NCBI RefSeq assembly: GCF_963921235.1
Contig: NC_086097.1
Coordinates: 136,216,001-136,280,000 of the forward strand
DNA from: Mobula hypostoma
Taxonomy: Eukaryota
Direction of reading: 5' to 3'
DNA: 64,000 bases
Part shown: piece by piece, positions 3,787 through 59,379 of the stretch
Numbering within the stretch: position 1 is the stretch's first letter
How the letters are laid out: each line of letters begins with the position of its first letter
The notes under the pieces: model-generated
The model's input: the letters and a program-made list of their open reading frames with translations, nothing else
Told to the model about the DNA's origin: nothing
Databases searched by the model: none
Position numbers and translations under genes: made by a program

Positions 3787-3789
3787 AGA

Positions 3790-4041
3790 CCAGAAAATCT
3801 GCAGGAGCTGGAAATTCAAGCAACACAAAAGATGGTTGAGGAGCTCAGCAGGTCAGGCAGCTTCTATGGAAAAGAGTAAACAGCCCAAGACCCTTCATCA
3901 GGACTGGAAAAAGAGATGAGAACTTCTCGTCTTTTTTTTTCCAGTCCTGGTGAAGGGTCTCGGCCCAAAACATCGACTGTTTTGTCTTTTCCATAGATGC
4001 TGCCTGGCCTGCTGAATTCCTCCAGCTTTCTGTGTGTTGCT
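3790..4041. mobile_element. Penelope-derived mini-element with inverted arms and two decayed hammerhead motifs
   Basis: Minus arm ..gacccttcatcaggactgg (about 3889-3907) and plus arm ccagtcctggtgaagggtctcggcccaaaacatcgactg (3941-3979); outer arms are reverse complements. Confidence 0.75.
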
Positions 4042-6820: not shown

Positions 6821-6917
6821 CAAAGAACACAATGTGCTAGAGGGACTCAGCAAGTCAGTCAGCATCTACGGATGGGAACAGAGAGTCAATGTTTCAGGCC
6901 GAGACCCTTCGTCAGGA
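6821..6917 (-). mobile_element. Penelope-derived 97-bp mini-element with hammerhead motif
   Basis: TSD caagattgttattg (6807-6820) / caagcttgttattg (6918-6931); minus strand reads (g)tcCTGACGAagggtctcggcctGAAAcATTgactc. Confidence 0.8.
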
Positions 6918-8848: not shown

Positions 8849-10504
8849 TTTCAGTGTATATGCTTTGAATGCCTGCAATAAAATGAACCTTAGGGCAGTA
8901 TATGGTGACCTATGTGTACTGAGATAATAAATTTACTTTGCACTTTGGCGGAGACCCTTCGTTATGAGGGGTGCAGAGTCCCAACTCCACGATGTTTCTC
9001 GACCCACTGAGTTCCTCCGGCAGTTTACCCTTTTCCTGACTGGGGATGAGATGTCAGCTGTAGGTGGTTGAGGTCCCAGGAGTGTAGAGGACAGGCATCC
9101 CTGCTGCCTGTGAGACCATGAGCTTTGCGCTGGGCCCGAGGTCTTGCTCTGCAATACACATGATAACAGCCATGACTTGCTTGTGGATTGATGCGCAGAA
9201 GTAGAAAGTGGGTCAGGATTTTACTGGTGTCCAGCGTGTCTTTCTACTGATTAATTGATTGATTGAGATACAGCGTGGAATAGGCCCTTTCAGCTCTTGA
9301 GGCCAAGCTGCCCAGCAACCCTGATGGCCAGTGACCTACAAATCAGTAGGTCTCTGGACTGTGAGAGGAAACTGCAGCACTTGGAGGAAACCCACACAAT
9401 CACGGGGAGAATGTACAAACTCCTTACCGACAGTGGTGGGAATTGAACCCGGGTCATTGGTACTGTAAACCGTTGTGCCCACCATGCTGCCCTATCGCAT
9501 CACGTTGGAGCTTAGCTCCTACTGAACGGTCAGTAAACAGCACAGCGAGTCATTACTAAATCTCGGACACTTCCAGCCTGCACGTTATTCTTCTCGGAGT
9601 TGAAATGCTGCATCTACAGTGCTGTATCTTCCATGCATCTGGAAGCGCATTCGAATTAATGATGGGAGCAGATGTGTTCAACATCTGCCAGCTGCCATGG
9701 TAAACAAGGAACTTGGTAATCTCCAGTGTCCCTAAGCTTTAACCAACACATCTGAAATGTATGCTGAGTGCATTTGTCACAGTGCTGGGTTCCACCTCTT
9801 TGCTTAGTAGGAGTTTGAGCAAATACATCTGGATTCCACAAGGCAGGCTCACACATAATCATCCTCTGTCTCAACAAAGGAGAACTGTGGGTCCCAAATG
9901 GTTCTCTGATTAAATGGTTAATCAACCCTTAGCACAGTGTGATGTGCAAAGGAATCAACTGGGTGACATTGGAATATAGTCCACAATGGACAGAAGGTGG
10001 CCATGCAGCCCATCAGGCCTGCTTCAGGAATCAATAAAATAATGACTGAAGCCTGACCCAGCTCCATCTTCACAACTATTTTTATATCTCTCAACAGCTG
10101 TAATAAACAAAATCTATCAATTTCAGATCTTCAAAATTAAGGAATTGTAATTTTTCCCAAAAGCTGTTGGATTCTGATGCTTTTACAATCCAAAGGTTCT
10201 TTAGGAGACAAGGTGGGCATAAAACCTATTGCTATGAATTCTATTAAGTGATCTTAAGTAATTTTATTAAAGCTTATGGCAAACAAGAGAAGAGGAGTTG
10301 AGAGAATGAGAAAAAGACATGGAAAAAGCAGTTGTGGTTGCCTCATACTCAGATTAACCTATAAAAGAGCAAGTTTCAAGTAGTGTGACACCGACTACTG
10401 AAGATTAAGAAGTTTCTAGAAAAATACAGAAGCAACTGTACTGTAGTTACTGGAAAATTCACTGACCAGTTGCTTGCATATAGGTAATTATAGTATGAAA
10501 ATAC

Positions 10505-11117
10505 TTCAAGAGCAGGGAGGTCATGCTGCAACTGTACAGGGTACTGGTGAGACTGCACCTGGAGTACTGTGCATTTCTGGTCTCCATACTTGAGGAAGGA
10601 TATACTGGTTTGGAGGCAGTGCAGAGGTGGTTCACCAGGTTGATTCCAGAGATGAAGGGGTTAACCTATGAGGAGAGATTGAGTCGCCTGGGACTATACT
10701 CTCTGGAATTCAGAAGAATGAGAGGGGATCTTATAGAAACATACAAAATTTTGAAAGGAATAGATAAGGTAGAAGTAGGAAAGTTGTTTCCATTGGTAGG
10801 TGAGACTAGAACGAGGGGACATTGCCTCAAGATTCAGGGGAGAAGATTTAGGATGGAGATGAGGAGAAACTGTTTTTCCCAGAAAGTGGTGAATCTGTGG
10901 AATTCTTTGCCCAGGGAAGCAGTTGAAACTTCTTCACCAAACATATTTAAGATACAGTTAGACAGATTTTTACATAGTAGGGGAATAAAGGGTTATGGGG
11001 AAAAGGCAGGAAGATGGAGCTGAGTTTACGGACAGATCAGCCATGATCTTATTGAATGGCGGGGCAGGCTCAATGGGCTGAACGGCCTACTCCTGCTCCT
11101 ATTTCTTATGTTCTTAT
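10505..11117 (+). mobile_element. CR1 LINE 3' fragment
   Basis: ORF 10523-11023 (LYRVLVRLHLEYC..RRMRGDLIETYKILKG..TRGHCLK..VVNLWNSLP); tail tcttatgttcttatg. Confidence 0.92.
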
Positions 11118-12307: not shown

Positions 12308-12929
12308 TACCGGAGTGATTGATAAGTTCGTGGCCTACAGTAGGATTCAATTTTAGAAAACCTAGCACATTTATTTTTCAGCATAATCCCCTCCTACATG
12401 TACACACTTAGTCCAGCGGTCGTGAAGCATACAGATCCCTTCTTTGTAGAAGTGGTACACAGCAGGGGTGATTGATAAATTCGTGGCCTAAGGTAGAAGG
12501 AGATGACTTATTAACTTCAAACTTTCTGCATTATCACTCAAAGAGTTGAATTGCACGTGCATGTAACAAGAGCGTTTTGGACCTCCAGGTGGTCCATAGC
12601 AGGGGTGATTGATAAGTTCGTGTCCTCGGGTAGAAGGAGATGAGTTATACAGCTCTCATTACGTGCACGTGCAGTCCAACTCTTTGAGTGAAAATGCAGG
12701 AAGTTTGAAGTTTCTCCTCATTCCCTTCTACTTTAGGCCACGAACTTATCAATCACCCCTGCTGTGGACCACTTCTGGAGGTCCAAGATGCCGACTTCTA
12801 CAAAGAAGGGATCCGTATGCTCCACAACCGCTGGACTAAGTGTGGAAATGTAGGAAAAATAAATGTGCTGGGTTTTTTAAAATTGACTCCTTCTACCTTA
12901 GGCCACGAACTTATCAATCACCCCTCATA
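12308..12929. mobile_element. Palindromic mariner-derived MITE with five TIR copies
   Basis: TA-bounded; TIR ggggtgattgataagttcgtggcct forward at about 12312, 12465, 12602 and reverse at about 12735-12760, 12900-12924; both arms carry the mariner transposase C-terminus (FYKEGIRMLHNRWTKC). Confidence 0.8.
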
Positions 12930-13879
12930 CAAGGTCAAAATCAAAGTACGTTTATTATCGAAGTATTCATATCTCACCATATACCATCTTGAGATTCATT
13001 ACCTTGCAGGCATTTACAAAAAAATAAAGAAATTCTTATATCAATTTATGGTATTGCTTGCACTGTTGTAACTATATGCTGTAATTATGTGGTTTTTGTC
13101 AGTTTTTTTAGCCTTGGTTTGTCTTGTATTTCTATGATATCATTCTGGAGGAACAAATTGTATCATTTCTTCATGCATGCAATACTAAATGACAATAAAA
13201 GAGGACTGCGTGTCCTCATAATCTAATCTAATCTAAATTCAATAAAGGAAAAACTATGCATTAATAAAGATTGGCAAGCAACCAATGTACAAAAAAAAAG
13301 ACAAATTGAGCAATCAATAAGTAAATAATACTGAGAACATGAGTCATAGAGTCCTTAAAAGTGATGAGGGACCTAAGTACTTCCTGCTTGATGGTACTAG
13401 TGCAAAGAAAGCATAGCCTGGATGGCGGGTGTCTTTGATGAGGGATATTGCTTTCTTGGTCAGGATGGTCAGAGCCTGGATGAGTAAGTAGCGTGGTATG
13501 CTGATGATATGAAGTATAGATGTTTAGTATAGATGTTTAGAGTGGTGGATGGAATGCAGCCAAGCAGACTGCTTTGATCTGGGTAGTACTGAGATTCTTG
13601 AGTATTGCTGGGACTGCCAGCAAATGCAGCGTATTCCATCACAATCCCAGCTAATGCCTTATACATTTGGAAGTGCTTTGGAGGTGAGTCACTTGCCACA
13701 GGATACCCAGTCTCTGACCTGCTCTTGCAGCCTGGGTATGTGTGTGGGTGCTGTTGTGTTCTGGTCAATGTTAACTTCAGTGACTGTAGGCTCTTTGCCG
13801 CTGTTGCTCACTAACCCAGGGAGAGATACCAAGAAAGAATTGGTTACTGAAGCAGCTTTAAATTCCTCAGTGCAATCAT

Positions 13880-14520: not shown

Positions 14521-15080
14521 ACATCAGTAAAAATCATCTTCCAACTCCTACCTCAGCCCTCTCTCTTTTTTTTTGACAATCTTCCCTGTATAGTCTCATT
14601 GCAGATGCAGGGTCTTGACCTGAAATGTTAACCATCTCTTTGCCTCCACAACTGCTCTCTGACATAGTGGGTTCCACCAGCAGTTTGTTGCTCCAAATTC
14701 CAGCATCTGCTCTCTATGGTATCTCCTTCTTTCCTGTGTTATCTGCCTCAGGAGAGCAGCATCACTAGAGGCTCAATGGCCCCCACACAAATATTGGGAT
14801 CCCTAGAGCAAGTTAGAGGCTGGGAATCTTGCTGGGAGTGACTCACATCTTCACACCCCATGGTCTGGCGCAAGTTCACAGCATGATAGGATACCCTCCA
14901 CACCTGGATTCACAGCCCTCCGAATGGAGAGGGAGGGGATGTCTCGCCATGTCATTCCTCCCTCGACGTGCATCCAAGACTCGACTGTCTCACTGCTTCT
15001 GCAACTGACTTGTCCTTCCAGGCCTTCTGTGGGAAACTGACAAAAGAATACTGATTTGGCCTGTACTTCCTCCCTATTTT

Positions 15081-16544: not shown

Positions 16545-19122
16545 AAACACAAAATACTCTGCAGATACTGGGGTCAAAGCAACAATCACAACACGCTGGA
16601 GGAACTCAGCAGGTCGGGCAGCATCCGTGGAAACGATGAGTCAACATTTCAGGCCGAATAGTGGCCAAAGGACCTAGGGTAATGGACGAACTGAAGGAAA
16701 TTTATATTAGGCAAGAAATGGTGTTGGATAGACTGTTGGGTCTGAAGGCTGGTAAGTCCCCGGGACCTGATGGCCTGCATCCCAGGGTACTTAAGGAGGT
16801 GGCTTTAGAAATCGTGGACGCATTGGTAATCATTTTCCAATGTTCTATAGATTCAGGATCAGTTCCTGTGGATTGGAGGGTGGCTAATGTTGTCCCTCTC
16901 TTCAAAAAGGGAGGAAGAGAGAAAACACGGAATTTTAGACCGGTTAGCCTGACATTGGTGGTGGGAAAGATGCTGGAGTCAATTATAAAAGATGAAATTA
17001 TGACACATCTGGATAGCAGTAACAGGATCGGTCTGAGTCAGCATGGATTTACGAAGGGGAAATCATGTTTGACTAATCTTCTGGAATTTTTTGTGGATGT
17101 AACTATGAAAATGGACAAGGGAGAGCCAGTGGATGTAGTGTACCTGGACTTTCAGAAGCCTTTGATAAAGTCCCACATAGGAGATTAGTGGGCAAAATTA
17201 GGGCACATGGTATTGTGGGCAGAGTACTGACAAGGATTGAAAATTGGCTGGCTGACAGAAAACAAAGAGTAGCGATTAACGGGTGCCTTTCAGAATGGCA
17301 GGCGGCGACCAGTGGGGTACCGCAGGGTTCAGTGCTGGGACCGCAGCTGTTTACAATATATATTAATGATTTAGATGAGGGAATTAAAAGTAACATTAGC
17401 AAATTTGCCGATGACACAAAGCTGGGAGGCAGTGTTGAATGTGAGGAGGATGTTATGAGAATGCAGGGTGACTTGGACAGGCTGGGTGAGTGGGCAGATG
17501 CATGGCAGATGCAGTTTAATGTGGATAAATGTGAGGTTATCCACTTTGGTGGTAAGAACAGCAAGGCAGATTATTATCTAAATGGAGTCAAGTTAGGAAA
17601 AGGGGAAGTACAACGAGATCTAGGTGTTCTTGCACATCAGTCACTGAAAGCAAGCATGCAAGTACAGCAGGCAGTGAAGAAAGCTAATGGCATGCTGGCC
17701 TTCATAACAAGGGGAATTGAATATAAGAGCAAAGAGGTCCTTCTGCAGTTGTACAAGGCCCTGGTGACACCACACCTGGAGTACTGTGTGCAGTTTTGGT
17801 CTCTAAATTTGAGGAAGGACATTCTTGCTATTGAGGGAGTGCAGTGTAGGTTCACAAGGTTAATTTCCGGGATGGCGGGACTGACATATGTCGAAAGGTT
17901 GGAGCGACTGGGCTTGTATACTCTGGAATTTAGAAGGCTGAGAGAGGATCTGGTTGAAACATATAAGATTATTAAGGGATTGGACACGCTGGAGGCAGGA
18001 AGCATGTTCCCGCTGATCAGTGAGTCCAGAACCAGAGGCCACAGTTTAAGAATAAGGGGTAGGCCATTTAGAAAGGAGTTGAGGAAAATCTTTTTTTACC
18101 GAGAGAGTGGTGAATATATGGAATGCTCTGCCCCAGAAGGCTGCGGAGGCCAAGTCTCTGGATGCTTTCGAGAAAGAGATGGATAGAGCTCTTAAAGATA
18201 GAGGAATCAAAGGTTATGGGGATAAGGCAGGAACTGGATACTGATTGTGGATGATCAGCCATGATCACAGTGAACAGTGGTGCTGGCTCGAAGGGCCAAA
18301 TGGCCTACTCCTGCACCTATTGTCTATTGTCTATTATTGTCTATTGACTGAAGAGGGAAGGGGCAGAGGCCCTATAAAGAAGGTGGGGGGGGGGTGGGAA
18401 GGAGAAGGCCGGTAGGTTCCAGGTGAAAAACCAGTAAGGGGAAAGATAAAGGGGTGGGGGGGGGGAACAGGGAGGTGATAAGCAGGAAAAGTGAAGAAGG
18501 AATAGGGGAAAACACAATGGGTAGTAGAAGGAGGCAGAACCATGAGGGAGGTGATAGGCAGCTGGGGGAGGGGGCAGAGTGACATAGGGATAGAGGAAGG
18601 GAGGGGGAGGGAATTACCGGAAGCTGGAGAATTTTATGTTCTTACCAAGGGGCTGGCAACTACCTAAGATGGTATATGAGGTGTTGCTCCTCCAACCTGA
18701 GTTTAGCCTCAATATGGCAGTAGAGGAGGCCATGTATGGACATATCTGAATGGGAGTGGGAAGCAGAGTTGAAGTGGGTGGCTACCAGGAGATCCTGTCT
18801 GTTGTGGCGGACGGAGTGGAGGTGCTCGACGAAGCGGTCCCCCAATCTGCGTTGGGTTTCACCGATGTAGAGGAGGCCGCACCGGGAGTACCGGATGCAA
18901 TAGATGACCCCAACAGACTCACAGGGGAAGTGTTGCCTCACCTGGAAGGATTGTTTGGGCCCCTGAATGGTGGCAAGAGAGGAGATGTGGGGACAGGTGT
19001 AGCACTTACACTTACGGGGATAAGTGCCGGGTGGGAGATCCGTGGGGAGGAACGTGTGGAGCAGGGAGTTGCGGAGGGACCGATCCCTGCGGAAAGCGGA
19101 GAGGGGTGGAGAGGGATAATCA
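16545..19122 (-). mobile_element. Penelope-like element (GIY-YIG endonuclease + pLTR), 5'-truncated, interrupted by CR1
   Basis: ORF 18660-19268 contains CKCYTC..FPCESVGVIYCIRYSRCGLLYIGETQRRLGDRFVEHL..HFNSASH..EEQHLIYHL; perfect TSD gatcccctgattat at 16531-16544 and 19123-19136. Confidence 0.92.
16658..18346 (+). mobile_element. Young CR1 LINE, 5'-truncated, RT with frameshifts
   Basis: ORFs 16661-17188 and 17188-18186 (KSPGPDGLHP, QHGFTKGKSCLTNL, SGVPQGSVLGPQLF, SKFADDTKLGG); (ctattgt)n tail 18317-18346. Confidence 0.96.
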
Positions 19123-20990
19123 GATCCCCTGATTATCTCCTGGGCTTCCTGTCTCTCCTCCATGTTGTTCTCTCCCCCATCACCAGTCCCCGCACCGAAA
19201 GAAATGAAAGGAGGAGGGGCACCAGACGGATGCGATAGGTGGGTGAGGAGAAGGGAAGGAGCAGCCAAAATGGGGAATGGAAAATGCGAGGTGGGGGAGG
19301 GAAGAGAAATTACTGAAAGATGAAGACATCGATGTTCATTTCTAAAAATTAATTCATTTGTTCATTTACAGGATGCAGGTGTCGCCAGCTAAGCCAGCAT
19401 TTATTGCCCATCCCTAGTTGCCTTTGAGAAGATGGTGACGAGCTGAGAAGGTGGTCATACCATCAGGTTAGAGGCTGCCCGACTAGAATGTGATGTGTTG
19501 CTCCTCCAACCCGAGAGTGGCCTCGCCGTGGCAACAGAGGAGGCCATGGACCAAGATGTCGGGGTGGGAATAGAAAGTGGAATTAAAAGGAAAGGCCACC
19601 AGGAAATCCTGCCTGTTGCAGAAGGCGCTCGACAGCCTCCAGATGCTCAGCTACCTGTCGTTGTGCCTTAGGTTTCCAGCATCAGCACTGCTTTGGTTTT
19701 TCAAGGGTTAATGAGTCACAGAATTGCAAAGAGACATATCACAGAAACAGGCCCTTCAGCCCATTGATTCTGCACTGACCATCAACCACCCACTTATACT
19801 AATTTTACACTAACCTCGTTTTATTCTCCCCACATTCCTGTCAATTTACCCCAGATTCTACCACTCACCAACACACGGGGGGTAATATACAGAGGCCAAC
19901 CTGCACACCTTTGGAATGTGGGAGGAAAGCAGACCACCCATATTGAACCTGGGTCTCTGGAGCTATGAATCACCCCATATTTTATTGTAATTTGCATTGC
20001 ATTCTGGGAGGAATATTTAGCTCACAGCCCGCGCATTGCAGACCACCTGCTCACCTTCCAACTCACATCTTTGTTGTTTCCAGCAGCTAATTAAAATAGA
20101 TATTTCTCCCCAAACAAATGCCTAAATCCCTAAATTACTCTGCAGATTGATATCTGTCTGGGACTCAGGGAAGGTGAATGAACACACACATTACCTCCCA
20201 GACTTTAGGGGTTAGTAAACTAGAATTAAACTCTTATGAGGTAGATAAGGAGCCAATAAATTCACAGTTAAATTGAAAAACTCAAGTGTCAGATAAGAGT
20301 TTAAGGATTAGGAAAACTGTTTGCAGTTCTATGCCAGGGGGCTGCTTAATTAATGAAGGAGTTGCCACAGTCTAGTGCTTGGGAATGATTTTTATCTCTC
20401 AGGAAGTGGAATAATTCCGAGTCAATCAATTGATGTTGGGTCAACAGAATGAGTTTGAAAGACCTTTACCATGAAATACTTTACAACATGCTTTCTTTGC
20501 TTTAGCTGTATTGGTTAGAGATTAAAGGACGTTCTGTTTGACTGCATACAATGGAGGAGCTTGACAGGAAACGTCCATCTGACCTTTTCTGTCCATTGTG
20601 AGGTTGTTAACAAGGTGGGGAGAGGCCATTGAACTGAAGGTAGATTGATATGAATGAAGGGTAATGTTTCTGGGCCCCAAGACACTGGCGGGAATCTGTA
20701 TTTGAGGTGATTGCAGTTCGCGCTCTCATCAGGAGCTGCTGGAAGGTCAACGTCTCAGCAGAAGAAGTCCTTGGGTCTGCCCGAAATTTGTTTGTCTTCC
20801 ATCGCAGCGAGATGTCCATTGGTATTGTTGATAACTGGCACATTCCAGGCTACAGGAGGTACGCTTGGCTTTGCCAATGCAAAGGCTCTGTGGGTTAGGA
20901 CCAGTTGCGTTTAAGGGGAAGAACCTCAAACAATGAAATGGTGTATCATCCCAGGGGGCTACATGGGGCAATGAAGCTATGGTTTGTATA

Positions 20991-21079
20991 CACGAGGAAT
21001 TCTGCAAATGCTAGAAATTCAAGCAACACACATCAAAGTTGCTGGTGAACGCAGCAGGCCAGCAACTTTGATGTGTGCT
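20991..21079. mobile_element. 89-bp Penelope-derived hairpin insertion (no hammerhead)
   Basis: Perfect TSD gctatggtttgtata at 20976-20990 and 21080-21094; arms cacacatcaaagttgctgg / ccagcaactttgatgtgtg. Confidence 0.85.
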
Positions 21080-22177
21080 GCTATGGTTTGTATATATTCT
21101 TTTAGTTAGTCCCCAGCCCTTTTATCAATTACCCCTTCACAGCAATGCACTGTAAACACTTCTTATAATGCTCTTTACATTGTAAATATATTATGGTATT
21201 TATATATTTATGCACATTTTATTCCATATCCATATTTTAACCTCTATAGTTTATATAATTCTTTAGTCTTTTGAATTGTTGAAAATTGTTGCTTTTTTTT
21301 GTTGCATGTCATGTCAACACTCCACAGCAAATTCCTAATACATACAATTCCTAATAATGTTGATCCCATGATCCTTGATCCTAGATCTTTTTTGAAATAC
21401 AAAAAAAGTACAGGCTGAATTAGGGTTCTTATGCCTTCCCCTACTTCCATTGCTTTGCATTGATGTACAGGCAACAACATCCTGGAATGTTTTAAATATA
21501 AAAGTTTTTTTACATTTTTATTGGCCCCAGGCTTGGAAAGGATTTCTGGGAATAGTGGGACAGAACCCCTCCCCCCCCCAACATGTTGGGAAGATCCTTG
21601 TGTAAAGTCAGATAACACATTGTCCATCTATACTTTAGGAGACAATATGGAAGTTAATATTGATTAGGTATGGAGGGAAGGACCTCTGTGTTGTTCCACT
21701 TAAAATGGCTAAATACTAGAAGTCCTTTGGAAGTACCAGTCCTGGCCAATGTTCTCACATCTCTCCACTTGTTGCCAGTTTTACATGCATTCCAAAAGAC
21801 AGAAACTATCGGAAACACTCAGCAGGTCAGGCAGAATCTGAGGAGTGGGAGACAGGATTAATGTTTCCGATCAATTACTTTACCTCAGATTTTGTTTCAG
21901 AGAGGCAGTGACTTTATATCCTTTGACAAGTCTTCTACACCAGTACTCTCTTACAACGTTTCGCTCTCTTAGCGACTACAGTGAATTACGTTCAGCTGGC
22001 AGACACAACCAGACTATTCAGCCCCTCTGCTCCTAACCAACATTTCAGCCCTGCACTTGCCTCCCCCGCAGTTCTTCACCTTCTCCCGTATCACCTTGGC
22101 CCTCTCCAACTTGTGTGGGTAATCACGTTTGCTTAAATCCATCTCTGTGGTTCACCTCTAACATTCCCTGTGGGAGT

Positions 22178-22308
22178 AAACACAAAATAATCTGCAGATG
22201 CTGGAGACAATGCAACACTCACGAAGGGTTCCGGCCCAAAACGTCGACCGATCTTTTCCACGGATGCTGCCCGACCTGCTGATTTCCTCCAGCGTGTAGA
22301 GAGTGTTG
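22178..22308. mobile_element. 131-bp Penelope-derived mini-element with inverted arm and mutated hammerhead
   Basis: Perfect TSD ccctgtgggagt at 22166-22177 and 22309-22320; acgaagggttccggcccaaaacgtcgacc at about 22221-22249. Confidence 0.85.
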
Positions 22309-23015
22309 CCCTGTGGGAGTGAGTTCCTATTCTCCATGGGCAGGGACAACTCCTGAGTTTCCTTTGGGAATTTTTTGAGGCTTTCTTATACGACGGCTGG
22401 TTGTGTCCCTTGGTGGAAATATCCCCTGTGTGTCTGCTGCATCTCAAAGCCTCTGTGTTGTTATTATTACCATTATCATCGGTTGTTCATGAGAGTGGGT
22501 TTGGTCCCGCTGGAACTTGGTATCTGGATGCCCTGATTTGCTTTGATCAGAGTCAGAATCAGGTTTAATATCACTGGCATATGTCTTGAAATTTGCTAAT
22601 TTAGCAGCAGCAGTACAATGCAGTACATGATAATAGAGAGAAGATGCTGTGAATTAGAGTAGGTATATATATAAAAAATAGTTAAATTAAATAAGTACTG
22701 CAAAAAATAGAAATAAAAAAAGTAATAAGGTAGTGTTCATCGGTTCAATGTCCATTCAGAAATCTGATGGTGGACGGGAAGAGGCCGTTGCTGAACAAAT
22801 GAGTGTCTGCCTTCAGGCTTCTGTACCTCCTTCCTGATGGTAGCAATGAGAGTAGGGCACGTCCTGGGTGGAGTGCGTCTTCAATGATGGACGCCAGAAA
22901 TCTGGATCACCCCCCGTTAGTGAATGACAGAAAATTGACTTTCAGACCACGCTGATGTCCAGCTTGGAATCCGATTCCACTCGCTAGCATCCTTTCACAA
23001 TATTAGAAGGATCCG

Positions 23016-23205
23016 AGCAACACCCACAAAAAATGCTGGTGAACGCAGCAGGCCAGGCAGCATCTATGTGTCCTGACGAAGGGTCCCGGCCCGAAACGTC
23101 GACTGTGCCTCTTCCTATAAATGCTGCCTGGCCTGCTGCGTTCACCAGCACTTTTTGTGTGTGTTGCTTGAATTTCCAGCATCTGCAGATTTCCTCCTGT
23201 CTGCG
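23016..23205 (+). mobile_element. 190-bp Penelope-derived mini-element, hammerhead inside a long hairpin
   Basis: TSD attagaaggatccg (23002-23015) / attagaaagatccg (23206-23219); about 50-bp inverted arms 23016-23068 vs 23117-23169. Confidence 0.9.
23070..23103 (+). ncRNA. Minimal type-I hammerhead ribozyme motif (intact core)
   Basis: gtc CTGACGA a gggt cccg gccc GAAA C GTC gac; predicted cleavage after 23100; helix III reduced to palindromic ACGT. Confidence 0.8.
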
Positions 23206-23706
23206 ATTAGAAAGATCCGCCCTGTATTCCAGCAATCCTTTCCAAACCTGGGCCAAATATCGAAGATGGCCCTCTTTACTGAGTTTCCTCAGCTAATCTT
23301 TTTTTTTGTATTGCAAAAATAGACTTTATGCATAATATATGTAGTAAATACAGTTGGTACACATCTTTCTCTACATTAAGTATATAATCAATTCAATATA
23401 TTTTCTTAAAATACTGTAGGTCATCACTATTCACATTTCCTCTTTAAACAGTGCACCCATGAAGTGTTTAAGAAGCTGTTACACCAAACCAAATCCCTCA
23501 GTGTCGAGACAGGTAGAAGTCTAGACTGGAATCACAAGAAACTGTGCCAGATGCTGGAATCTGGAGAGAAAAACAGATTGCTGAATGAACTTAGCAGGTC
23601 AGGCAGCATATGTGGAGGCTTAGCATGTCATGATTGTGGGGCCTCAACTCAAAACTTCAGCTACCCTTTCCATCTTCAGCTGCTGACTGACCTAATGAAT
23701 TTCTTC

Positions 23707-23834
23707 CTGACGAAGGGTCTCGGCCTGAAACGTCGACTGTACCTCTTCCTAGAGATGCTGCCTGGCCTGCTGCGTTCACCAGCAACTTTGATGTGTGTTG
23801 CTTGAATTTCCAGCATCTGCAGAATTCCTGTTGT
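23707..23834 (+). mobile_element. 128-bp Penelope-derived mini-element starting exactly at the hammerhead core, nested in an older related repeat (about 23533-23865)
   Basis: Perfect TSD taatgaatttcttc at 23693-23706 and 23835-23848; insert begins CTGACGAagggtctcggcctGAAACGTCgactg. Confidence 0.9.
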
Positions 23835-26134
23835 TAATGAATTTCTTCAGCAGATTGGTTTTTGACCCACGATGTGATCTTTCCCCACAGACCCTTTGCA
23901 GTAACTGCACCAAGAATCATTCACTGATAATATGCTGATCCCTTTATCCATTGAGTCGCAGAGTTAGCACAGAAACAGGCCTTTAGGCCTAGCTCATCCA
24001 TCCCAGCCAGTGTGCCTACCTGAGCTAGTCCCATTTGCCCGCATTTGACCAATATCCCTCTAAACCTTTCCTACCCACGTGTATGCTCAAATGTCTCTTT
24101 AAGCATCGCAATAATTATCTGCCCTTTGTGACCTCCTCCAGTCTGGGCCCCTGTGCTTCTCCAAGTCCAAATGGTAGGGAGTACTGAGTGGGTCAGTTCG
24201 CTCCGTTGCTGGAATCCATCCCAAAGTTTACCACAACCCCCTCCCCTGTTCTGCGCAAGCCTGGAAAGAGTTATTATCTGTGGAAACAGGAAATGTACTC
24301 TGATATCACAATGTTTGTAAAGTGATGTTGGTACAGTAATGACGCCAAAAGGGAACAGGGAGGGATCCTGCTGTTGCCTCTGTTAGGTATGTGGGAGACC
24401 AAAACACTGATGCATGTTAGCAGAGACTTGATGCTGAGATTCTGATTCAGGGAACGCTGGCTGGAAGGTCCCACTCATTTCCTCCCTAGCCCAGAGGCCA
24501 AAGGATACGGTGTATGTTCTGAGAGATTTGTCTGTGCTTTCTTCAGATTGGAAAGGATAGCGAATTTATTTACTGATGCATTCAGGGGTGAATAAAATAT
24601 CACTCAAAGTAAAGCTCAATTTTCCACCTGACATGCACAAGACTGGGAATTTATTAGCACCTAGAAGAATCCTCTCAAAAATGGCGAGCGGAACCAATCG
24701 ATTTCCACTGGCACATCTGACTAATCCTACAGACGGCCCCCAACCTCCCACACCATCCCCAGACCAGGTTGCTGAAGGCAGCTGACTAAAGCAACGTTGA
24801 TATGTTAATCCACAGGAGTTCCCCTCACAATTGATTGGATTGCCCAAGTTTCACAAAGTGCCTCGAGTGTCAATGACCAGACACAAATGGTACCCACCAG
24901 TGACCTTATAGGCGTAGTGGTCGGTCGTTCCCTCGGTCATCTGTGCCAACTGGGAGAAGTAGAGTGAGCAACAGTGGTTTCACCCTCTGTTCTTACTTCT
25001 ACTGACATCGGTGAGAGACATACACGGTGCCATTGACTCAGAGACATAGAAGGGAAACAGGACCTTTGTTCCTCCGAGCCACACTGACAACCAAGCACCC
25101 ATTTCCAACCTCAGACAGTTAATCTAAGCAACATTCTCATTAGCTGCCCCCCCAACCCTGCTCTATCCATTAACCCCGTCACTGCACTTCAAAACACTTT
25201 TTATAATACATTGTAAATACATGTTGTTACTAATGTATTTATGCACATTTTAGTCTATACTTTAACATCTAACTTTGTTTTTTATGTAATTCTTTCTTCG
25301 TTATAATTGTTGTTTTATGTTGCACATCACACCCTGAGCAACACATCACCGCAAATTCCTAATACATGTAAACGTCTATGGAGCATGAAGATGATGCTTG
25401 ATCCTTGACTTACACCAGGCCTGCACCAATCCCACTTCATCCTCCTCACACTCCCATCAACTTCTCCCAGATCCCGCCACTCACCTACACCCTCGGGGTA
25501 AATTACAGCGCACAACCAGCCTTTCAACCCCCACAGTACTGGGACGTGTCGGGAAACCGGAGTACCCAGAGAAGACCCATGCGGTCACAAGGAGACTGTG
25601 TAGACTCCACACCGGCAGTGCTGGAATCTGATTTCTGCAGCCAAGAGATAGCAGCATTACTAATTGCACCACAGAGTCATCCCTTCCCATTGATTGGGGA
25701 ACAAAGGGTTTCATTTTAGAAAAGCCTGACTTGAGTCATACCTGTTATCAATGTGTTACCATCTGACCAAGGCAGAAGGAAGCTCCTGTGAACCATCCTC
25801 TCTATGAGGGAGCTTGACAGCTCTGCTGGCCCAAACGTCGTCCTCTGCACTATCTCTTCAATTACAACTCCGGTCAGGTGGCAGACACCTGCCCTCTCGA
25901 GCCCGCAAGTTGTGGGTTCAAAACCCTGGGCTGATGCACATCCTGCCAGAGGAGCTGTGTTTCACCACGAGGGGATGTCTTCGCTCAGAGGGTGGTGAGA
26001 ATGTGGAACGAGCTGGTGGATGTGGATTTAATTGCAACATTTAAGGACAGGTACAGTGAGTGGTATGAAGGGCTATGGTCCATGTGCAGGTCGATGGGAT
26101 TAGGTAGACTAACAAATACAAGAAAGGCTTCAGA

Positions 26135-26346
26135 TGCGGAAATCCAAAGCAGCACACAAAAAACACTGGAGGAACTCAGCAGGTCAGGCAGCATCTGTGG
26201 AAAAGAGTAAACAGTCGGCATTTCAGGCCGAGACCCTTCATCAGGACTGAAGAAGGGTATCAGCGCGAAACCTCAAGTGTTTTTACTCTTCCTCATAGAT
26301 TCTGGCTGACGTACTGAGTTGCTCCAGCATTCACTAGGTGTTGCTC
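26135..26346. mobile_element. Penelope-derived mini-element with back-to-back decayed hammerheads, inside a CR1 3' fragment
   Basis: agtcggcatttcaggccgagacccttcatcaggactg (minus) directly followed by ctgaagaagggtatcagcgcgaaacc (plus). Confidence 0.7.
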
Positions 26347-36399: not shown

Positions 36400-38103
36400 A
36401 AGAAGAAGAAGAAGAAGAGGAATATCTTTATTGTCATTGTTGTGGAGCAATGATACACAGTTTAGCAGCTCAACGTTTTGCAGCATGACAAAGAATATAT
36501 ACATAAAATAAACTCTAAAACCTCAGGAGTGCAGTCAAAAATTAATAATATATGGATGGGGGGGTAGGACTATTGCACACCTGCCATTCCTGGAAGTGTG
36601 ATGCATTTAGCTGCCGCTGTCTTCGGAGGGGGGGCAGGAGAAGGGAAGAGGATGTTATACATTTCACTGCTTGTGAGTAGAAGCTGTTAAGAAGTCTCTT
36701 TGTTTTTGTCCTTAATGCTCTGTATCTCTTCCCAGAAGGTAGAGGGGAAAACAGGTGATGTCCAGGATGAGTGGGATCCTTTGAAATACAAGTAGCTTTC
36801 TTTTGAAGTCTGCCAGTATAAATGTCTCTGAGGGAGGGTAATGTTGTGCCAATAACCCACTCTGCTACCCTCACCACCCGCTGCAAGTCCTTCCTGTTCT
36901 GTTCTGTGCAGCTGGCAAACCACACTGCACAGCAATACGTCAGGAGGCTCTCTATAGTTGTCCGATAGAAGTTGATCAGCAGGTGATGAGAGAGGAGAGC
37001 GTGCTTTAGCTTCCTTAGGAAGTAGAGCCTCTGTTGGGCCTTCCCCACCTGATAAGAGATATGGGCAGTCCAGGTGAGGTCAGCCGAGTTGTGGACGCCA
37101 AGGAACTTGAAACTCTCTACTCTCTCCACTTCTTTCCCGTATATGTGCAGAGCAGAGTGCTTGACGCGCTTTGATTTCCTGAAGTCTACTATCAGCTCCT
37201 TGGTTTTTGTGATGTTCAAGTCCAGGTTATTATGACAACACCATTCTGTCAAATGCTGTACCTCCTCCCTATAGGCTGTCTCGTCACAGTCTGATATGAT
37301 ACCTATTAGGGTGGTATCGTCAGCAAATTTGACAATGGTGTTGGTGGAGTGAATGGTAGAGCAGTCATGGGTGAGGATGGGGCTGAGACCACATCCCTGT
37401 GGTGTACCGGTGTTCAGGATGAGAGTAGATGATGTCTGTTCTCCCATCCTGACACTTTGGGGTCTGTTACTCAGAAAATCCAGTATCCCTGAGCACAGGG
37501 AACTGCCAAGGCCCAGGTTGCTCTATTTCTGCACCAGTTTGTAGGGGATGAGCTGTATTCAAAGCTGAGCTGTAGTCCACAAACAGCATTTCTACATAGG
37601 TGTTATCCAGATCCAGGTTTGTAAGATCCAGCTGTGTGGAGAGCTGTGATGATTGCATCCTCTGTCGATCTGTTTGCACGATACGCAAACTGGTATTTAT
37701 CAAGGTCAGCAGGTATGGTAGACTTAATATAAGACAGTATGAGTCTCTCAAAACATTTCATATGATAGGAGTTAGAGCAACTGGGTGATAGTCACTAAGG
37801 CAGTTCACTGTACTTTTCTTGTGGCTGACTTAGGGCAGGTGGGGACTACAGACTGTAGTAGCGAGAGGCTGAAGATGGTAGTAAATACTCCCGCTAGGTG
37901 ATCTGCGCAGTCCTTAAGAATCCTTCCGGTGACTCCATCTGGGCCAGCTGCTTTCTTCGCATTGACTCCGTGCAGGGCGGATCTGACCTGGTGCTGGTGT
38001 AATTGTATAGGGTCATCCTTCTCTGTTAGTGCTGACTGGATGCCAACTTCTCCATTCTGACTGTCGAAGCGAGAAAAGAACTGGTTCAGAGTGTCTGGCA
38101 ATG
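36400..38103 (-). mobile_element. Rex1/Babar LINE, 5'-truncated, (CTT)n tail
   Basis: ORF 36542-37447 ([33 protein letters not shown]), 37805-38155 (KAAGPDGVTG); AATAAA then (CTT)n tail on minus strand. Confidence 0.92.
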
Positions 38104-39832
38104 TAGAACTGTAGAGAACAAAGGAACACAATGAACTCTTGGCCAACAGGGCCACTGTCTAAAAACTCTCAAACCAACTAAACAGTGGCACTGTCAATGT
38201 GACTTGAAAGCAGTAAACTAGGACTACATTAATATCACTCCTTTAACAGTGTCTAACTCAATCACTAGTCTTCCTTCCCAGAACATGGACTAAAGTAAAA
38301 TGTTGTCTCTGTGCTTTGATCAAGACTTGACAAGACTGAACAAAAGGGAGAGAGTTAAATACAATTACAAAGAAACCCTAATTGGCTGGAACGTGTGCAT
38401 TTTCACATGCTTGATTGCTGTCTTCTTTCAGCTGCCCACCTGCAAGAGTGCTCAGACTCCACGGCAGTGTCTACAGTTGTGAGAGGGCCCCCTTCCTGAG
38501 GCGTCAGAGGCCTGTGTCCATCAGGCATATTGTTTCAAGGTGCACAGCGGAGAAGCCTTGGTCTGCCTTCATGTGTACTTGTAGCAATAGACCAACTGTT
38601 CAGCTGAAGTGACTCCCAGGTCAATCTCTTAATGGCTGGAATCTCTTTTGTCATTCAAAGGGAGACATACCCGTGGAAGACAATTGGAGGTTATTGTGGA
38701 CAATCTCTGCACAAACCAGTTGGGAGCTCCAGGTTCTGAGGGTTGAAGAAACAAGGCAGCACAGGTTTCTCTCCAGCTCCTGATTCACTCTCTCAATCTG
38801 AACTCTGAGAACATTTGGGCTTCTTCACTTGTCCATTGGAATCTTGCAAAGGTCTCAGTGAGTGCATTTATGGAAGCCGTGATGGAACTACAGATTCTGA
38901 CGAAGTGGCGATAAACGTTTACAAACCCTCTGAAACACCGCATCTGTTTGACTGTAGATGGGTTGTCCATTCTGTGCCTGCCTGAACTTTACATGGGTCC
39001 ATTTGAACACTGGAAAAAAGCTACAGAAGGTTGTAAAATTAGCCAGGTCCACCTTGGTATCCATAGTATCCAAGACATCTTCAATAGGCAGTGTCTCGGA
39101 AAGATAATGTCCATTATTAATTTCTGTTGTTATACTATTTTTACTCTATTTAATTTATTAGAATATTAGAGTATTTATTTATTTTTCTATATTATCATGT
39201 ATAGCATTGTACTGCTGCTGCTAAGTTAGCAAATTTCACGACACATGCTAATGATAATAAATCTGTTTCTGATTCTCAGAGAAGTTAGAATGTAGCCCAA
39301 GAACCACACCTACTCTTTGTGGACCCACTCTTCTCTGATTCAGCATAAAGGTTGCTCTCAAGGGGCCATCTGAGAACCTTCCAGACATGCTAGATGTGTT
39401 CCTGAGGCGAGTGGGAATAGGTAATAATGTTATCCAATTACACGAAAACAAACTGATTCAACATGTCCTCTAGCACATCGTTGACCAGGGTCTGAAAAAC
39501 AACAGGGGCATTAGCCAGACCAAATGACTTCATGAGGTACTCAGAGTGGCCAATGGGAGTGTTGAATGCTGTCTTCCACTCGTCTTCTTGTTGGATGCGA
39601 AGCCAGTTACAAGTGTTGCACAGATCTATCTTAGGGAATGTGGTTGATCCCCAGAGATGTTCAAATGCACAGGCAAGCAGGGGAAGAGAATAACAGTTCT
39701 TCACCATGATGTTGTTGAGGGGCCAGTAGTCAATGCAGGGCTGGAGCTCGTCATCCTTTTTGCTTACAAAAAGAAGCCTGCCCCTGCTGGTGAGGTAGAT
39801 GGATCCTAAGGCCAATACCTCCTTGATGTATT

Positions 39833-41110: not shown

Positions 41111-42835
41111 TGTTGAATTCTGTTCATGTGGACTATGAAAGTATTTAGTATGCATGCGCACTCTCCCTGTTATGTGTGTGCACGTGGGAGGAGAGGGTGG
41201 AATTGTGGAATATAAAGATGGTGGCCCTCAGGGATTGAATAGAGACATTGAAGGTAAAGTTGTTTATACAAAAGAAAAACGTGCCTTTGTTATTTGGGCG
41301 TTAGCAATAGTAACAGAGGGGATCGTTTCCAGTTATAAGATCCTGCCAGCATTTGACGAGAGCAAGCCTTACGAAAGCTGAAAAAGTGAAACTGGAATAT
41401 GAACGTGTTACAGAACTGGAGAAGATGAAGCAAGCCTTGGTTGTTGTGCTGTCAATTTTGGGAAGAGCAAGAGAGACCGCGATGGGAATTTTGGAGGAAG
41501 ACTTGAGCAAAGATAATGATGTGAGTACGCTAATAAATCCACTTGACTGTTTTTTCGAAGGAAGAAAAGGATCGTATTTATGAAGCATATTCAGACTTTG
41601 ACAAAATTTACAGAGACAATTCTAAAAACAGGGATGCTTTTATTACTGATTTTAAACAGAAGTACAGTCGCAGGTGTAAATACAAAATGGAATTTCCTGA
41701 CACTGTCAAGAGAAAATCTGCAGATTCTGGAAATCCAAGCAACACACACAAAATGCTAGAGGAACTCAGCAGGCCATGGTAGCATCTCCGGAAAAAGTAC
41801 AGTCAACATTTCGGACCAAAAGTCTTCGGCAGTCCTGCTGATTTCCTTCAGCATTTTGTGGGTGTTACTCTGATTTCTAGCACCTGCAGAGTTTCTCTTA
41901 TTTGTGAACATGGCATCCAGCACAAGAAATACCACAGTACAATCTTTACATGAAGAAAACAAGATAGTGTGCAGAATTCAATCTGAAAAAGTAGTCTTGA
42001 CGTTTCAACAGCTTGTAAAAAGATAACTCACTGAGGCTCGTTGTCTTCAATGATGTCTCATTTGGGAATCTTCTTGATGAAGGTACTCAAGGGGAACATT
42101 TTATTGTACTGATGGGAGAAGAGGGAAGTTTTTCACTTCTACTGGCAATCAAAAAGGATCCAAAGTGTTTGTATGGAGTACACTGGCAGGAGAAACCCTT
42201 GAAATGTCTGAAGGTTTTGACAATGCTGTTTTCTGGCCACTCTATTCTGAGCTTTTCCATGGTGATGCAAAGAAGGATAGTCTACAGAACACCTGTGTCA
42301 CAGACAACTACTCTTTGGTTGATGCCATCAATTCCACCAAGTCAATTACAAAGAAGAAGCAGCATCAAAGAACTTGTCCAAGCACAGAAAATTCATCACG
42401 TGTTGTGGTCAACGACAAAAGAACAGCGAGTTGAGGGCCTCACAAAGAAAGGAGCACCAGCTCTTATGTTGTTAAAGGCACTTAGTGAAGGCATTCAGTA
42501 CTTTTAAGAATTGTATTAACGTCAAGGATTAGAACTAATTCTCATATCCTAGTGGACATTTGAATTGTTTGGACATCTGATTTGCCCTTAAATTTTTTTC
42601 AAATTTAATTTTTAATATAAGCATAAAAAGGATGAGAGATTGTTGAGTTCTGTTCATTTGAACTATGTAAGTATTTAATACTCATGCGCACTCTCCCTAT
42701 TATGCATGCGTGCTTGGGAGGAGTGGGTGGAATTTGGGATGTAGAGGTGGTAGCCCTCGCGTATTGAAAGGAGACGTTGAATGCAAAGTTGTTTAGACAA
42801 AAGAAAAATGTGTCCTTGTTGGTTGGGCATTAACA
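41111..42835 (+). mobile_element. Internally deleted Ty1/Copia (GalEa-type) LTR element
   Basis: LTRs 41111-41306 (TGTTG..TAGCA) and 42641-42835 (TGTTG..TAACA); aagc on both flanks; PBS-like tagtaacagag 41308-41318; PPT 42625-42639; gag (PAFDESKPYES, KQALVVVLS.LGRARE, EEKDRIYEAYSDFDK) and RNase H (STLAGETL, TDNYSLVDAINSTK, EQRVEGLTKKGA). Confidence 0.88.
41707..41910. mobile_element. Penelope-derived inverted mini-element at the Copia gag/RNase H deletion junction
   Basis: aaaatctgcagattctggaaatccaagcaacacacacaaaatgctagaggaactcagc ... ccttcagcattttgtgggtgtt..tttctagcacctgcagagttt; decayed hammerhead about 41800-41835. Confidence 0.7.
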
Positions 42836-44765: not shown

Positions 44766-44930
44766 AAACACAAGAGATTTTGCAGATGCTGGAAATCCAA
44801 ATCAATACACACAAAATGCTGGATGAACCCAGCAGGTCAGGCAGTATCTGTGGAAAAGAATAAGCAGCCGATGTTTTGGGCAGGGATCCTTCATCAGGAC
44901 CGGAAAGGAAGGCAGAAGAAGCCAGGATTG
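44766..44930 (-). mobile_element. Penelope-derived mini-element, decayed hammerhead
   Basis: TSD tggaactagtttag (44752-44765) / tggaaatagttttg (44931-44944). Confidence 0.75.
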
Positions 44931-47347
44931 TGGAAATAGTTTTGCTTCACTGCCATTAGAACTGAGTTTTGCAAATGTACTGATTTTTTATTTCTTCACA
45001 CAACCTGTCTCCCTATAGAAATGACTTTTGTCTGAATCAGAATCAGAATCAGATTCAGGTTTATTATCACCGGCATGTGATGTGAACTTTGTTAATTTAG
45101 CAGCAGCAGTTCAATGCAATGCATGATCTAGCAGAGAGAGAGAGAAAAAATAAAATAAAACATAATAATAAATAAACAAGTAAATCAATTACGTATGTTG
45201 AATAGATTATTAAAAAATGTGCAAAAACAGATGTACTGTATATTAAAAAAAGTGAGGTAGTGTCCAAAGCTTCAAAATCCATTCAGGAATCAGATGGCAG
45301 AGGGGAAGAAATTGTTCCTGAATCGCTGAGTGTGTACCTTCAGGCTTCTGTACCTCCTACCTGATGGCAACAGTGAGAAAAGGGCATGCCCTGGGTGCTG
45401 GAGGTCTTTAATAATGGATACTGCCTTTCTGGGACACCGCTCCCTAAAGATGTCCTGGGTACTTTGTAGGCTAGTGCCCAAGATGAAGCAGACTAGATCT
45501 ACAACCTTCTGCAGCTTCTTTTGGTCCTGTGCAGTAGCCCCTCCATACCAGACAGTGATGCAGCCTGTCAGAATGCTCTCCATGGTACAACTATAGAAGT
45601 TTCTGAGTGTATTTGTTGACATGCCAATCTCTTCAAACTCCTAATAAAGTACAACCACTGTCTTGCCTTCTTTATGACTCTATCAATGTGTTGGGACCAG
45701 GTTAGATCCTCAGAGATCTTGACACCCAGCAACTTGAAGCTGCTGACACTCTCCACTTCTGGTCCCTCTATGAGGATTGGTATGTGTTCCTTTGTCTTAC
45801 CCTTCCTGAAGTCCACAATCAGCTCTTTTGTCTTACTGATGCTGAGTGCCAGGTTGTTGCTGCAGCACCACTCCACTAGTTGGCATATCTCACTCCTGTA
45901 TGCCCTGTTGTCACTATCTGAGATTCTACCAACAATGGTTGTATCGTCAGTAAATTTATAGATGGTATTTGAGCTATGCCTAGCCACAGAGTCACGTGTA
46001 TATGGAGAATAGAGCAGTGGGCTAAGCACACACCCCTGAGGTGCACCAGTGTTGATCATCAGTGAAGAGGATATAGAAACATAGAAACATAGAAAACCTA
46101 CAGCACAGTACAGGGTCTTCGGCCCACAAAGTTGTGCAGAACATGTCCCTACTTTAGAACTACCTAGGCTTTACCCATGGCCCTCTATTTTTCTAAGCTC
46201 CATGTACCTATCTAAAAGACTCTTAAAAGACCCTATCGTATCTGCCTCCACCACCATTGCCGGCAGCCCATTCCACACACTCACCACTCCCTGCGTAAAA
46301 ATCTTACCCTGACATTTCCTCTGTATCTATTCCCCAGCACCTTAAACCTGTGCCTTCTCATGTTAGCCATTTCAGCCCCAGGAAAAAGCCTCTGACTATC
46401 CACACGATCAATGCCTTTCATCATCTTATACACTTCTGTCAGGTCACCTCTCATCCTCCGTGCTCCAAGGAGAAAAGGCCAAGTTCACTCAACCTGTTTT
46501 CATAAGGCATGCTCCCCAATCCAGGCAACATCCTCGTAAATCTCCTCTGCACCCTTTCTATGGTTTCCACATCCTTCCTGTAGTGAGGCGACCAGAACTG
46601 AGCACAGTACTCCAAGTGGGGTCTGACCAGGGTCCTATATAGCTGAAATATTACCTCTCAGCTCCTAAATTCAATTCCACGATTCATGAAGGCCAATACA
46701 CCATATGCCTTCTTAACCAACCTGCGCAGCTGCTTTGAGCGTCCTATGGACTCAGACCCCAAGATCCCTCTGATCCTCCGCACTGCCAAGAGTCTTACCA
46801 TTAATATTGGACCTACCAAAATGAACCATTTCACACTTATCTGGGTTGAACTCCATCTGCCAGTTCTCAGCCCAGTTTTGCATACTATCAATGTCCCGCT
46901 GTAACATCTGACAGCCCTCCACATTATCCACAACACCGCCAACCTTTGTGTCATCAGTAAACTTACTAACCCATCCCTCCACTTCCTCATCCAGCTCATT
47001 TATAAAAATCACGCGAAGAGTGGGGGTCCCAGAATAGATCCCTGAGGCACACCACTGGTCACCGTCCTTCATGCAGAATATGACCTGTCTACAACCGTTC
47101 TTTGCCTTCTGTGGGCAAGCCAGTTCTCGATCCACAAAGCAATGTCCCCTTGGATCCCATGCCTCCTTACTTTCTCAATAAGCCTTGCATGGGGTACCTT
47201 ATCAAATGCCTTGCTGAAATCCATATACAGTACATCTGCTGCTTTTCCTTCATCAATGTGCTTAGTCACATCCTCAAAAAATTCAGTCAGGCTCGTAAGG
47301 CATGACCTGCCCTTGACAAAGCCATGCAGACTTTTCCTAATCATATT

Positions 47348-54208: not shown

Positions 54209-55085
54209 AGGACGAGAAAATTCCACCATCTCCAACGGGATCCCACCACCAAGCACATCTTTCCCCCTCCCCCACTTTCCACTTTCCACAGAGATCGCTC
54301 TTCCCTACGTGACTCTCTTGCCCATTCGTCCCTCCCCACTGATCTCCCTCCTGGTACTTATCCTTGCAAGTGGAACAAGAGCCACAACTGCCCCTACACC
54401 TTCGCCCTCACTACCATTCAGGGACCTTCCAGGTGAGGTGACACTGCACCTGTGACTCTGTTGGAGGGTCATCTACTGTATCCGGTACTCCCGGCGAGGC
54501 CTCCTGTATATCAGGGAGACCCGGCACAGATTGGCAGACCGTTTGGCTGAGCGGCTACATTCCATCTGCCAGAAAAAAGGGGATCTCCCGGTGGCCACCC
54601 ATTTGAATTCTACATCCCTTTCTCATTCCGACATGTCAGTCCATGGCCTTCTGTACTGCCGCAATGAGGCCACCGCCAACCTGATGGCCTGAACGTTGTT
54701 TTTGCAAACTTCTGGTAATTGCCCCTCCCCCTGTACCATCCCATTCCCATCTCCCTCTCTCACCTCATCTCCTTATCTGTCCATCACCTCCCTCTGTGCT
54801 TCTCCCCCTTCCTCTACCCTCTCTTATCAAATTCTCCCTTCTCCAGCCCTTTACCTCTCACCTATCAGCTCTCCAGCCCTTTACACCATCCCTCCCCCCT
54901 CCCAGTTACACCTCTTACCCACCTCCTTGTACTTCTTCCTCACCTCCCCCTACCTTCTAATTCTAACTTCTTATCTTTTCTTCCAGTCCTGATGAAGGAT
55001 CTCGGCCCGAAATTTCGACTGTTTACTCTTTTCTATAAATACTGCCTGGCCTGCTGAGTTCCTCCAACGTTTTGTGTGTGCCGCT
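54209..55085 (+). mobile_element. Penelope-like element 3' part (GIY-YIG + pLTR + hammerhead) inserted in a Rex1 fragment
   Basis: gtcatctactgtatccggtactcccggcgaggcctcctgtatatcagggagacc (decayed VIYCIR..LLYIGET); TSD tggaactggctga (54196-54208) / tggaaatgtctga (55086-55098). Confidence 0.85.
54984..55021 (+). ncRNA. Minimal hammerhead motif (core intact, helices II/III mutated)
   Basis: cagtc CTGATGA aggatctcggccc GAAA t TTC gactg; 5-bp helix I. Confidence 0.6.
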
Positions 55086-59267: not shown

Positions 59268-59379
59268 TTTTCATTTATACTGATGTATGGAATGATTTGT
59301 CTGGATTGCACTAAATTATTCATTGTATCTTTATAAGTGACAATGACAAACCAATTGTCCATGACCACAGAAAAATTAC

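Follow-up and report, generated by a model that had tools for sequence, protein, structure and literature searches.

The short, hammerhead-bearing repeats that are scattered through this genome are best explained as separate insertions of the head of a Penelope-like element (PLE) encoding a reverse transcriptase (RT) and a GIY-YIG endonuclease, and they are likely dead-on-arrival cDNAs of the RNA of that autonomous element, a reading to which we assign a probability of about 0.6. That these minis are by-products of the PLE, and not products of mini master copies, we consider very probable. An initial annotation of the window, by which we mean the whole stretch of 64,000 nucleotides analysed here, had proposed a distinct family of retrozyme-like mini-elements. 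The listed copies and the three intact ribozyme cores are where it placed them; the status as a family of their own is not supported.

Element positions are counted from the predicted cleavage site, with 0 as the first base after GUC, so that C3 lies at -28 and the first G of helix I at -31. All positions at which copies had been listed in the window bear a member of the family by blastn and nhmmer, and two further copies lie at 14601-14710 and 23532-23613. A descriptor of type-I hammerheads returned exactly the three intact cores that had been claimed, with C3 at 23073 and 23707 on the forward strand and at 59469 on the reverse strand; requiring 3 bp or more in helix I left 2 matches in the window, whereas 40 Markov controls averaged 0.0. 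The bare heptamer CTGAYGA was not above chance in the window (27 vs 19.6 +/- 4.4), and an Rfam search found no hammerhead match at E<=10, its miRNA matches being rejected as fold-back artefacts.

The flagged insertion at 23016-23205 had been described as one 190-bp unit, but is composed of two arms paired head-to-head. The inverted arm (23016-23067, minus strand) holds the PLE head from +16 to +68 from the cut, finishes with the short-tail end and is without the ribozyme, while the forward arm (23070-23205, plus strand) spans -31 to +104 and finishes with the long-tail end. The arms are joined via two extra bases (23068-23069), and the insertion is enclosed by target-site duplications (TSDs) of 14 bp at 23002-23015 and 23206-23219 that differ by one mismatch. 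An intact minimal type-I hammerhead occupies 23070-23103 on the plus strand, its core beginning at 23073, with 3 bp in helix I, 4 bp and a G-U pair in helix II, and a palindromic, loop-less helix III; the predicted cut, after 23100, agrees with the site named in the initial annotation.

The 1.9-kb GIY-YIG insertion at 59380-61267, with an exact 13-bp TSD (59367-59379 and 61268-61280), has the same design, namely a short-tailed minus-strand arm and a long-tailed plus-strand arm bearing the GIY-YIG domain. An intact hammerhead with a 5-bp helix I sits at its end (59435-59474, minus strand) and a decayed one in its other arm (61130-61165, plus strand). The positions 59438 and 61129, which had been listed among the copies, are ends of a long PLE copy and not minis; the same holds for 54984, which belongs to the 3' part of a long, older copy with a decayed core (54624-55089, plus strand). 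A GIY-YIG coding remnant of another older PLE lies at 18599-19361 on the minus strand; its Pfam GIY-YIG match, at E 0.0023, falls short of the curated cut-off.

TSDs of 12-15 bp had been claimed for six short copies, and all six are present, three exact and three with one mismatch. They flank an older solo mini with a decayed helix III at 6821-6917 (minus strand; 14 bp, one mismatch), a fold-back of two tail-only arms at 20991-21079 (exact 15 bp, 20976-20990 and 21080-21094), an older inverted pair at 22178-22308 (exact 12 bp), the flagged insertion itself (14 bp, one mismatch), a solo mini at 23707-23834 (plus strand; exact 14 bp, 23693-23706 and 23835-23848) and an older mini with a decayed core at 44766-44930 (minus strand; 12 bp, one mismatch). 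As carriers of hammerheads the six are uneven: the description is right for 23016-23205 and for 23707, although at the latter only 2 bp of helix I are left beside the intact core, whereas 20991-21079 has no hammerhead and the core at 22178-22308 is broken. Older inverted pairs are found at 3789-4041 (cores decayed, no TSD of at least 8 bp found), 26115-26344 (cores decayed, no clear TSD) and 41705-41903 (core decayed, no clear TSD), and an older minus-strand copy at 16546-16657 starts inside helix II. Other repeats in the window include a probable MITE of 180 bp bounded by long terminal inverted repeats (12591-12770, with a related piece near 12990-13030), whose Rfam miRNA match is far under the gathering score. 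Translations inspected by eye revealed many LINE RT/endonuclease remnants of at least two kinds (10499-11023, 16640-18186 and 61666-62559; 36542-37522, 45568-46170 and 51128-52012) and an LTR-type RT remnant (39438-39830).

Which element supplies these sequences? Long copies were located from a GIY-YIG query, and one of them, L161, contains an 848-aa frame with an RT (Pfam RVT_1 E 3e-5), a C-x4-CxxC linker and, at the C-terminus, a GIY-YIG domain, the RT and GIY-YIG Pfam scores both being under the curated cut-offs. Where copies are nearly full-length, the 5'UTR and the ORF follow the hammerhead and tail without interruption, with a likely start codon ~135 nt past the predicted cut, and the element carries the hammerhead-and-tail segment again at its 3' end, in line with the earlier claim that the mini sequence is the end of a GIY-YIG PLE. 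Because the head is continuous with the ORF and the segment is repeated 3', the mini corresponds both to the PLE 3' end and to the head of the RNA. Most PLE heads sit behind a truncated upstream copy, a partial tandem that forms a hammerhead-holding pLTR. A single RT and GIY-YIG ORF, a pLTR with a hammerhead, an inverted partner and an optional tail together describe an EN+ PLE. The C-x4-CxxC linker points to a Neptune/Nematis architecture, a CX2-5CxxC linker before GIY-YIG being common to both in Craig et al. (2021, PMC8557442), and we tentatively assign the element to the Neptune clade, given that vertebrates yielded only Neptune and Poseidon according to Li, Clavereau and Pollet (2026, 10.64898/2026.07.22.740005).

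The very high abundance that had been proposed is upheld. Across the 3.48-Gb genome, whose repeat content suggests a cartilaginous fish, exact patterns match 45,522 young ribozyme cores; for two young subfamilies the tail motifs number 46,525 and 1,645, and the 5'UTR just past the tail is matched 701 times, with 0 in the reversed control in every case. Exact patterns were preferred since the tail by itself, used as a DNA query, gave no match, probably owing to words that occur too often. In 1.0 Mb, nhmmer detected 169 arms with a 3' end, and 0 in reversed sequence, and the descriptor with at least 3 bp in helix I found 22 matches in 100 arbitrary 10-kb stretches and 0 in five Markov controls. 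Extrapolation from 1.0 Mb drawn from large contigs only gives an estimated genome total of ~6x10^5 arms.

The motif is, as had been recognized, a minimal hammerhead of type I whose helix III is palindromic, its core and helices I and II being found by the descriptor, and subfamily variants keep the pairing (C-G/U-G in helix I, G-C/G-U in helix II). The core is more conserved than the adjacent linker in young (0.98 vs 0.88) and old copies (0.86 vs 0.70), and the segment from +19 to +27 reaches 0.96 in young copies (p 0.11 against the core) and, at 0.91, exceeds the core (0.86) in old ones. All 11 core bases are intact in 32/44 young and 10/76 old copies; decay of the core in old copies is as expected if selection acts on master elements and not on copies. 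Folding by minimum free energy (MFE) produced no significant z-scores and did not favour the active fold, and for the monomer the predicted MFE structure is a competing hairpin, with the fold containing helices I and II lying 4 kcal/mol above it. We predict that the ribozyme cleaves only as a dimer. Known PLE ribozymes cleave weakly, as dimers or with protein (PMC4209133, PMC11167929), dimer cleavage is attributed to Lunse et al. (cited via PMC6765202), and 8/9 Xenopus dimers failed to cut (10.64898/2026.07.22.740005).

The ends of the copies carry most of the mechanistic information. We assembled a young set of 154 unique tail-anchored copies (157 minus 3 duplicates) from contig 1 pattern loci and random stretches. 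Their 5' ends grade continuously, 89 reaching no farther than 100 nt upstream of the cut, 23 falling at -101 to -480 and 42 lying beyond; those of the minis range from +35 to -91, and the junctions differ per insertion. TSDs of at least 8 bp, with a length mode of 13-15 bp, accompany 66/89 short young copies as compared with 3/444 mismatched controls, in support of the earlier notion of separate insertions, and 46/89 short copies have an inverted partner. Among 128 copies at risk, 39 start at -22 to -36, a 15-nt zone at the 5' edge of the ribozyme that coincides with its outer edge and not with the cut site. The start rate per nt is 0.020 in this zone, 0.0066 on either side (p 2e-11) and 0.0009 beyond -100, which places the hot spot ~20x above background. 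Solo copies start at -30 to -36 in 16/85 cases, with a mode at -31, and the downstream unit of tandem junctions begins at about -30 to -34 in 7/7. The pile-up is broad, starts from -11 to -60 also being raised 7x, and does not mark one base. At the 5' ends of ORF-bearing copies, which represent a second pass, the hot spot is weaker (4/33 vs 39/128, p 0.046), a marginal difference in a small comparison; this count excludes three tandem loci and one overlapping locus.

The 3' ends are bimodal, at ~+66 (short tail) or ~+103 (long tail) from the cut, and two-tailed inverted pairs combine one short-tail with one long-tail arm in 39/39 loci. Of the copies with 5'UTR sequence, 19/47 end 110-220 nt past the long tail (L348-L397), which suggests RT priming on the RNA head and makes this region at the ORF start a possible third priming zone. 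Several candidate features of the 5' junctions were rejected: a spliced first exon attached to the acceptor-like, pyrimidine-rich site ahead of helix I, as solo minis share no extra upstream bases; repeated TGTCC starts, which reflect query bias; and a cap-derived G, with 1 clear case by eye among 14 TSD-bearing solo junctions.

How might such copies arise? We envision that the endonuclease would nick both strands ~14 bp apart and that each nick would prime reverse transcription at one of two internal sites, as in vitro for the anole PLE. Upon priming on the 5' head of the RNA, the cDNA would likely run off the RNA 5' end near -31 to -36 and yield a copy of 95-140 nt, and two such cDNAs might then join via 1-5 nt of complementarity to give fold-backs. 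Because most minis contain the whole ribozyme, their template was uncut RNA, on which the ribozyme would ride as a passenger. Given a by-product origin, such a run-off at an RNA end is probably the cause of the hot spot. At -36 there is an initiator-like motif. The weaker second-pass hot spot argues against a purely local block, which would not predict it. Speaking against run-off are the spread of the pile-up from -11 to -60, the lack of a consistent cap-derived G at the solo junctions and the transcription start of Penelope in D. virilis, which lies well upstream of the hammerhead, ahead of an intron (PMC2377424).

The main rival to run-off shares the origin from PLE RNA and attributes the pile-up to a structural or protein-bound stop, whereby RT drops off at the folded hammerhead or at the partner cDNA and templates continue upstream. 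Such a stop, which we regard as rather unlikely, could account for stopping that is raised from -11 to -60, including the interior of helix II, for a hot spot that persists in ORF-bearing copies (4/33 in 15 nt vs 6/27 over 380 nt) and for the ~70% of first-pass copies that read through it. However, the peak in solo copies (-30 to -36) lies at the exit side of the structure and not at +4, where RT enters, and the rate decreases on the second pass.

Alternatively, the minis may form an independent, non-autonomous SINE- or retrozyme-like family with its own masters, mobilised by the PLE in trans and perhaps via circular RNA. Very high copy number, individual TSDs and the existence of rare tandem arrays (L378, L362, L379) are compatible with this possibility, as is a nearest-neighbour test on 53 long-tail copies, in which neighbours belong to the same class at 0.64 vs 0.50 expected (p 0.01); this excess would accommodate a degree of copying from mini to mini, or masters of differing yield. 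None of 20 variable sites, however, distinguishes minis from long copies (lowest p 0.068; subfamily sites p>0.5), the main haplotypes are common to both, and divergence is alike (51/2059 vs 50/1730). A SINE-like family would have a fixed 5' end and its own subfamily variants, whereas here the 5' ends and junctions vary and there is no mini-specific site. The distinct mini-element family of the initial annotation is not supported: 5' ends grade into long copies, and subfamily variants are equally proportioned in both. The label 'retrozyme-like' fares no better, because the tandem arrangement of retrozymes is represented by only 4 + 3 = 7 direct head-to-tail junctions genome-wide in the main young subfamily, next to 46,525 tails and 45,522 cores, or ~7 per 46,000. 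The minis also lack the upstream pLTR, to which the Penelope promoter was mapped (PMC2377424). An independent family is thus improbable and, for the young copies, already largely refuted.

That the minis record ribozyme cleavage in vivo, with cut RNAs templating copies that start at the cut, is highly improbable and would explain at most ~2% of copies: copies whose first base directly follows the cut and is preceded by foreign sequence are in excess (209, as compared with 24 for a control position lying 3 nt downstream; 3/145 in sampled copies), but 26/30 inspected cases were scored as inverted-pair junctions, mostly at a 3-nt microhomology of helix I for which the control position is unmatched, so that the excess is confounded and no proof of cleavage, and most minis hold the whole ribozyme, indicating an uncut template.

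Much of this picture has precedents. Cervera and de la Pena (2014, PMC4209133) interpreted single minimal hammerheads (min-HHRs) found genome-wide, including opposite-strand pairs, as probably truncated PLEs. The present family resembles their metazoan motifs in the type-I core, the loop-less helix III with its palindromic 15.2-16.2 pair, the extra base after A9, the G10.1-C11.1 pair, the short helix I and the location in pLTRs, as well as in the prevalence of single motifs tied to truncated PLEs and the presence of some opposite-strand pairs. It differs in helix II (4-5 bp here, 7-8 bp in schistosome families) and in scale, the 45,522 exact young cores comparing with ~4,000 motifs in coelacanth and ~9,000 in Xenopus (PMC4209133). 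A term search of the supplement text of that study gave no shark, Callorhinchus or Leucoraja entry, and its available part contains no description of a 5'-end hot spot.

Canonical EN+ PLEs of the Neptune/Nematis type (Craig et al., 2021, PMC8557442) likewise show heavy 5' truncation, partial-tandem pLTRs, an adjacent inverted truncated copy, an optional tail of 30-40 bp at one end, the CX2-5CxxC linker and cysteines inside GIY-YIG. Unlike in these elements, about half of the young copies here consist of the head alone, and the rule of one short and one long tail, set against that account, is here counted (39/39). The two 3' ends match PAc, the Poseidon element of Anolis (Frangieh et al., 2024, PMC11167929), in which two internal RT start sites in the RNA head bound the tail downstream of the hammerhead; in vitro, PAc has both strands nicked and extended, and uncut RNA is the main substrate. 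PAc belongs to another clade, and its ORF starts inside the ribozyme (PMC11167929), whereas the likely start codon here lies ~135 nt after the cut. With non-LTR retrozymes (Cervera and de la Pena, 2020, PMC7229834) the minis share a non-coding nature, a type-I hammerhead and derivation from PLE terminal repeats. Retrozymes, however, are tandem repeats with a ribozyme per unit that are expressed as circles (PMC7229834, 10.64898/2026.07.22.740005), whereas the copies here occur singly or as inverted pairs, with tandems as rare exceptions.

The novelty of ribozyme-bearing mini-elements as such is mostly gone, in view of the account of 2014 (PMC4209133): the motif, its location in PLEs, truncation, genome-wide single copies, inversions and tails are already published. 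Given that the motif and its link to truncated PLEs were known, the gain lies in mechanistic detail and in repeat annotation, and not in a new class. Among the papers listed by a literature search, none deals with the chondrichthyan family or with the 5'-end hot spot; the sample of Li, Clavereau and Pollet (2026, 10.64898/2026.07.22.740005) includes one chondrichthyan genome. PLE transposition is poorly understood, and this genome offers an unusually large fossil record of it, in which ~45,000 ribozyme cores are identical and the arms are estimated at 6x10^5. Together with the strict pairing of short and long tails, the hot spot provides countable in vivo constraints on the mechanism with two start sites and two strands seen in vitro, and both suggest where the RNA may start.

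The rare tandem arrays bear on the origin of retrozymes from PLE ends, which has been proposed (10.64898/2026.07.22.740005). L378 (G000:C2, ~157816470-157817740) is one PLE-head insertion with a 12-bp TSD and a repeat of 310 bp x 4.1. Its four ribozyme-bearing 310-bp units are 99% identical, each extends from -34 to ~+276, and the units alternate in a variant of the cut triplet. From its sequence, L378 looks like a nascent retrozyme; an origin by back-splicing was rejected, there being no donor GT at the unit end. L362:1086-2119 (435 bp x 2.4) and L379:1526-2062 (262 bp x 2.0) are shorter arrays of an extended PLE head; the first 100 of the 701 5'UTR matches include three arrays with longer units. 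L378, L362 and L379 are tandem in the sense of the retrozyme definition and fit an origin from PLE ends, but they are very rare. It is conceivable, if doubtful, that the minis are to Penelope what strong-stop DNA is to retroviruses, a joint reading that would also cover failed transfers and tandem re-entries. RT would prime on the 5' head of the RNA, run off a defined RNA end at the edge of the ribozyme and normally then transfer to a 3' end or use a ribozyme-made circle; failed transfers would scatter tens of thousands of intact ribozymes across the genome, and rare re-entries would lay down tandem ribozyme arrays. If true, L378 would catch the birth of a retrozyme in the act.

A few PLE loci have unusual compositions. 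At L199:1166-1219, 54 nt of tRNA sequence with a GUC anticodon loop (Rfam tRNA E 7e-4), in which ARAGORN finds no whole tRNA gene, lie between the inverted arm and the head of a long PLE copy; this fragment was probably captured by template switching. Near the PLE 5' ends of L192 and L195 the order is head, part of the ORF and head again; a mini-sized head behind an internal ORF position suggests a jump after RT had left the head. Finally, L208 carries a mini in reverse inside the PLE body (oriented 2046-2180).
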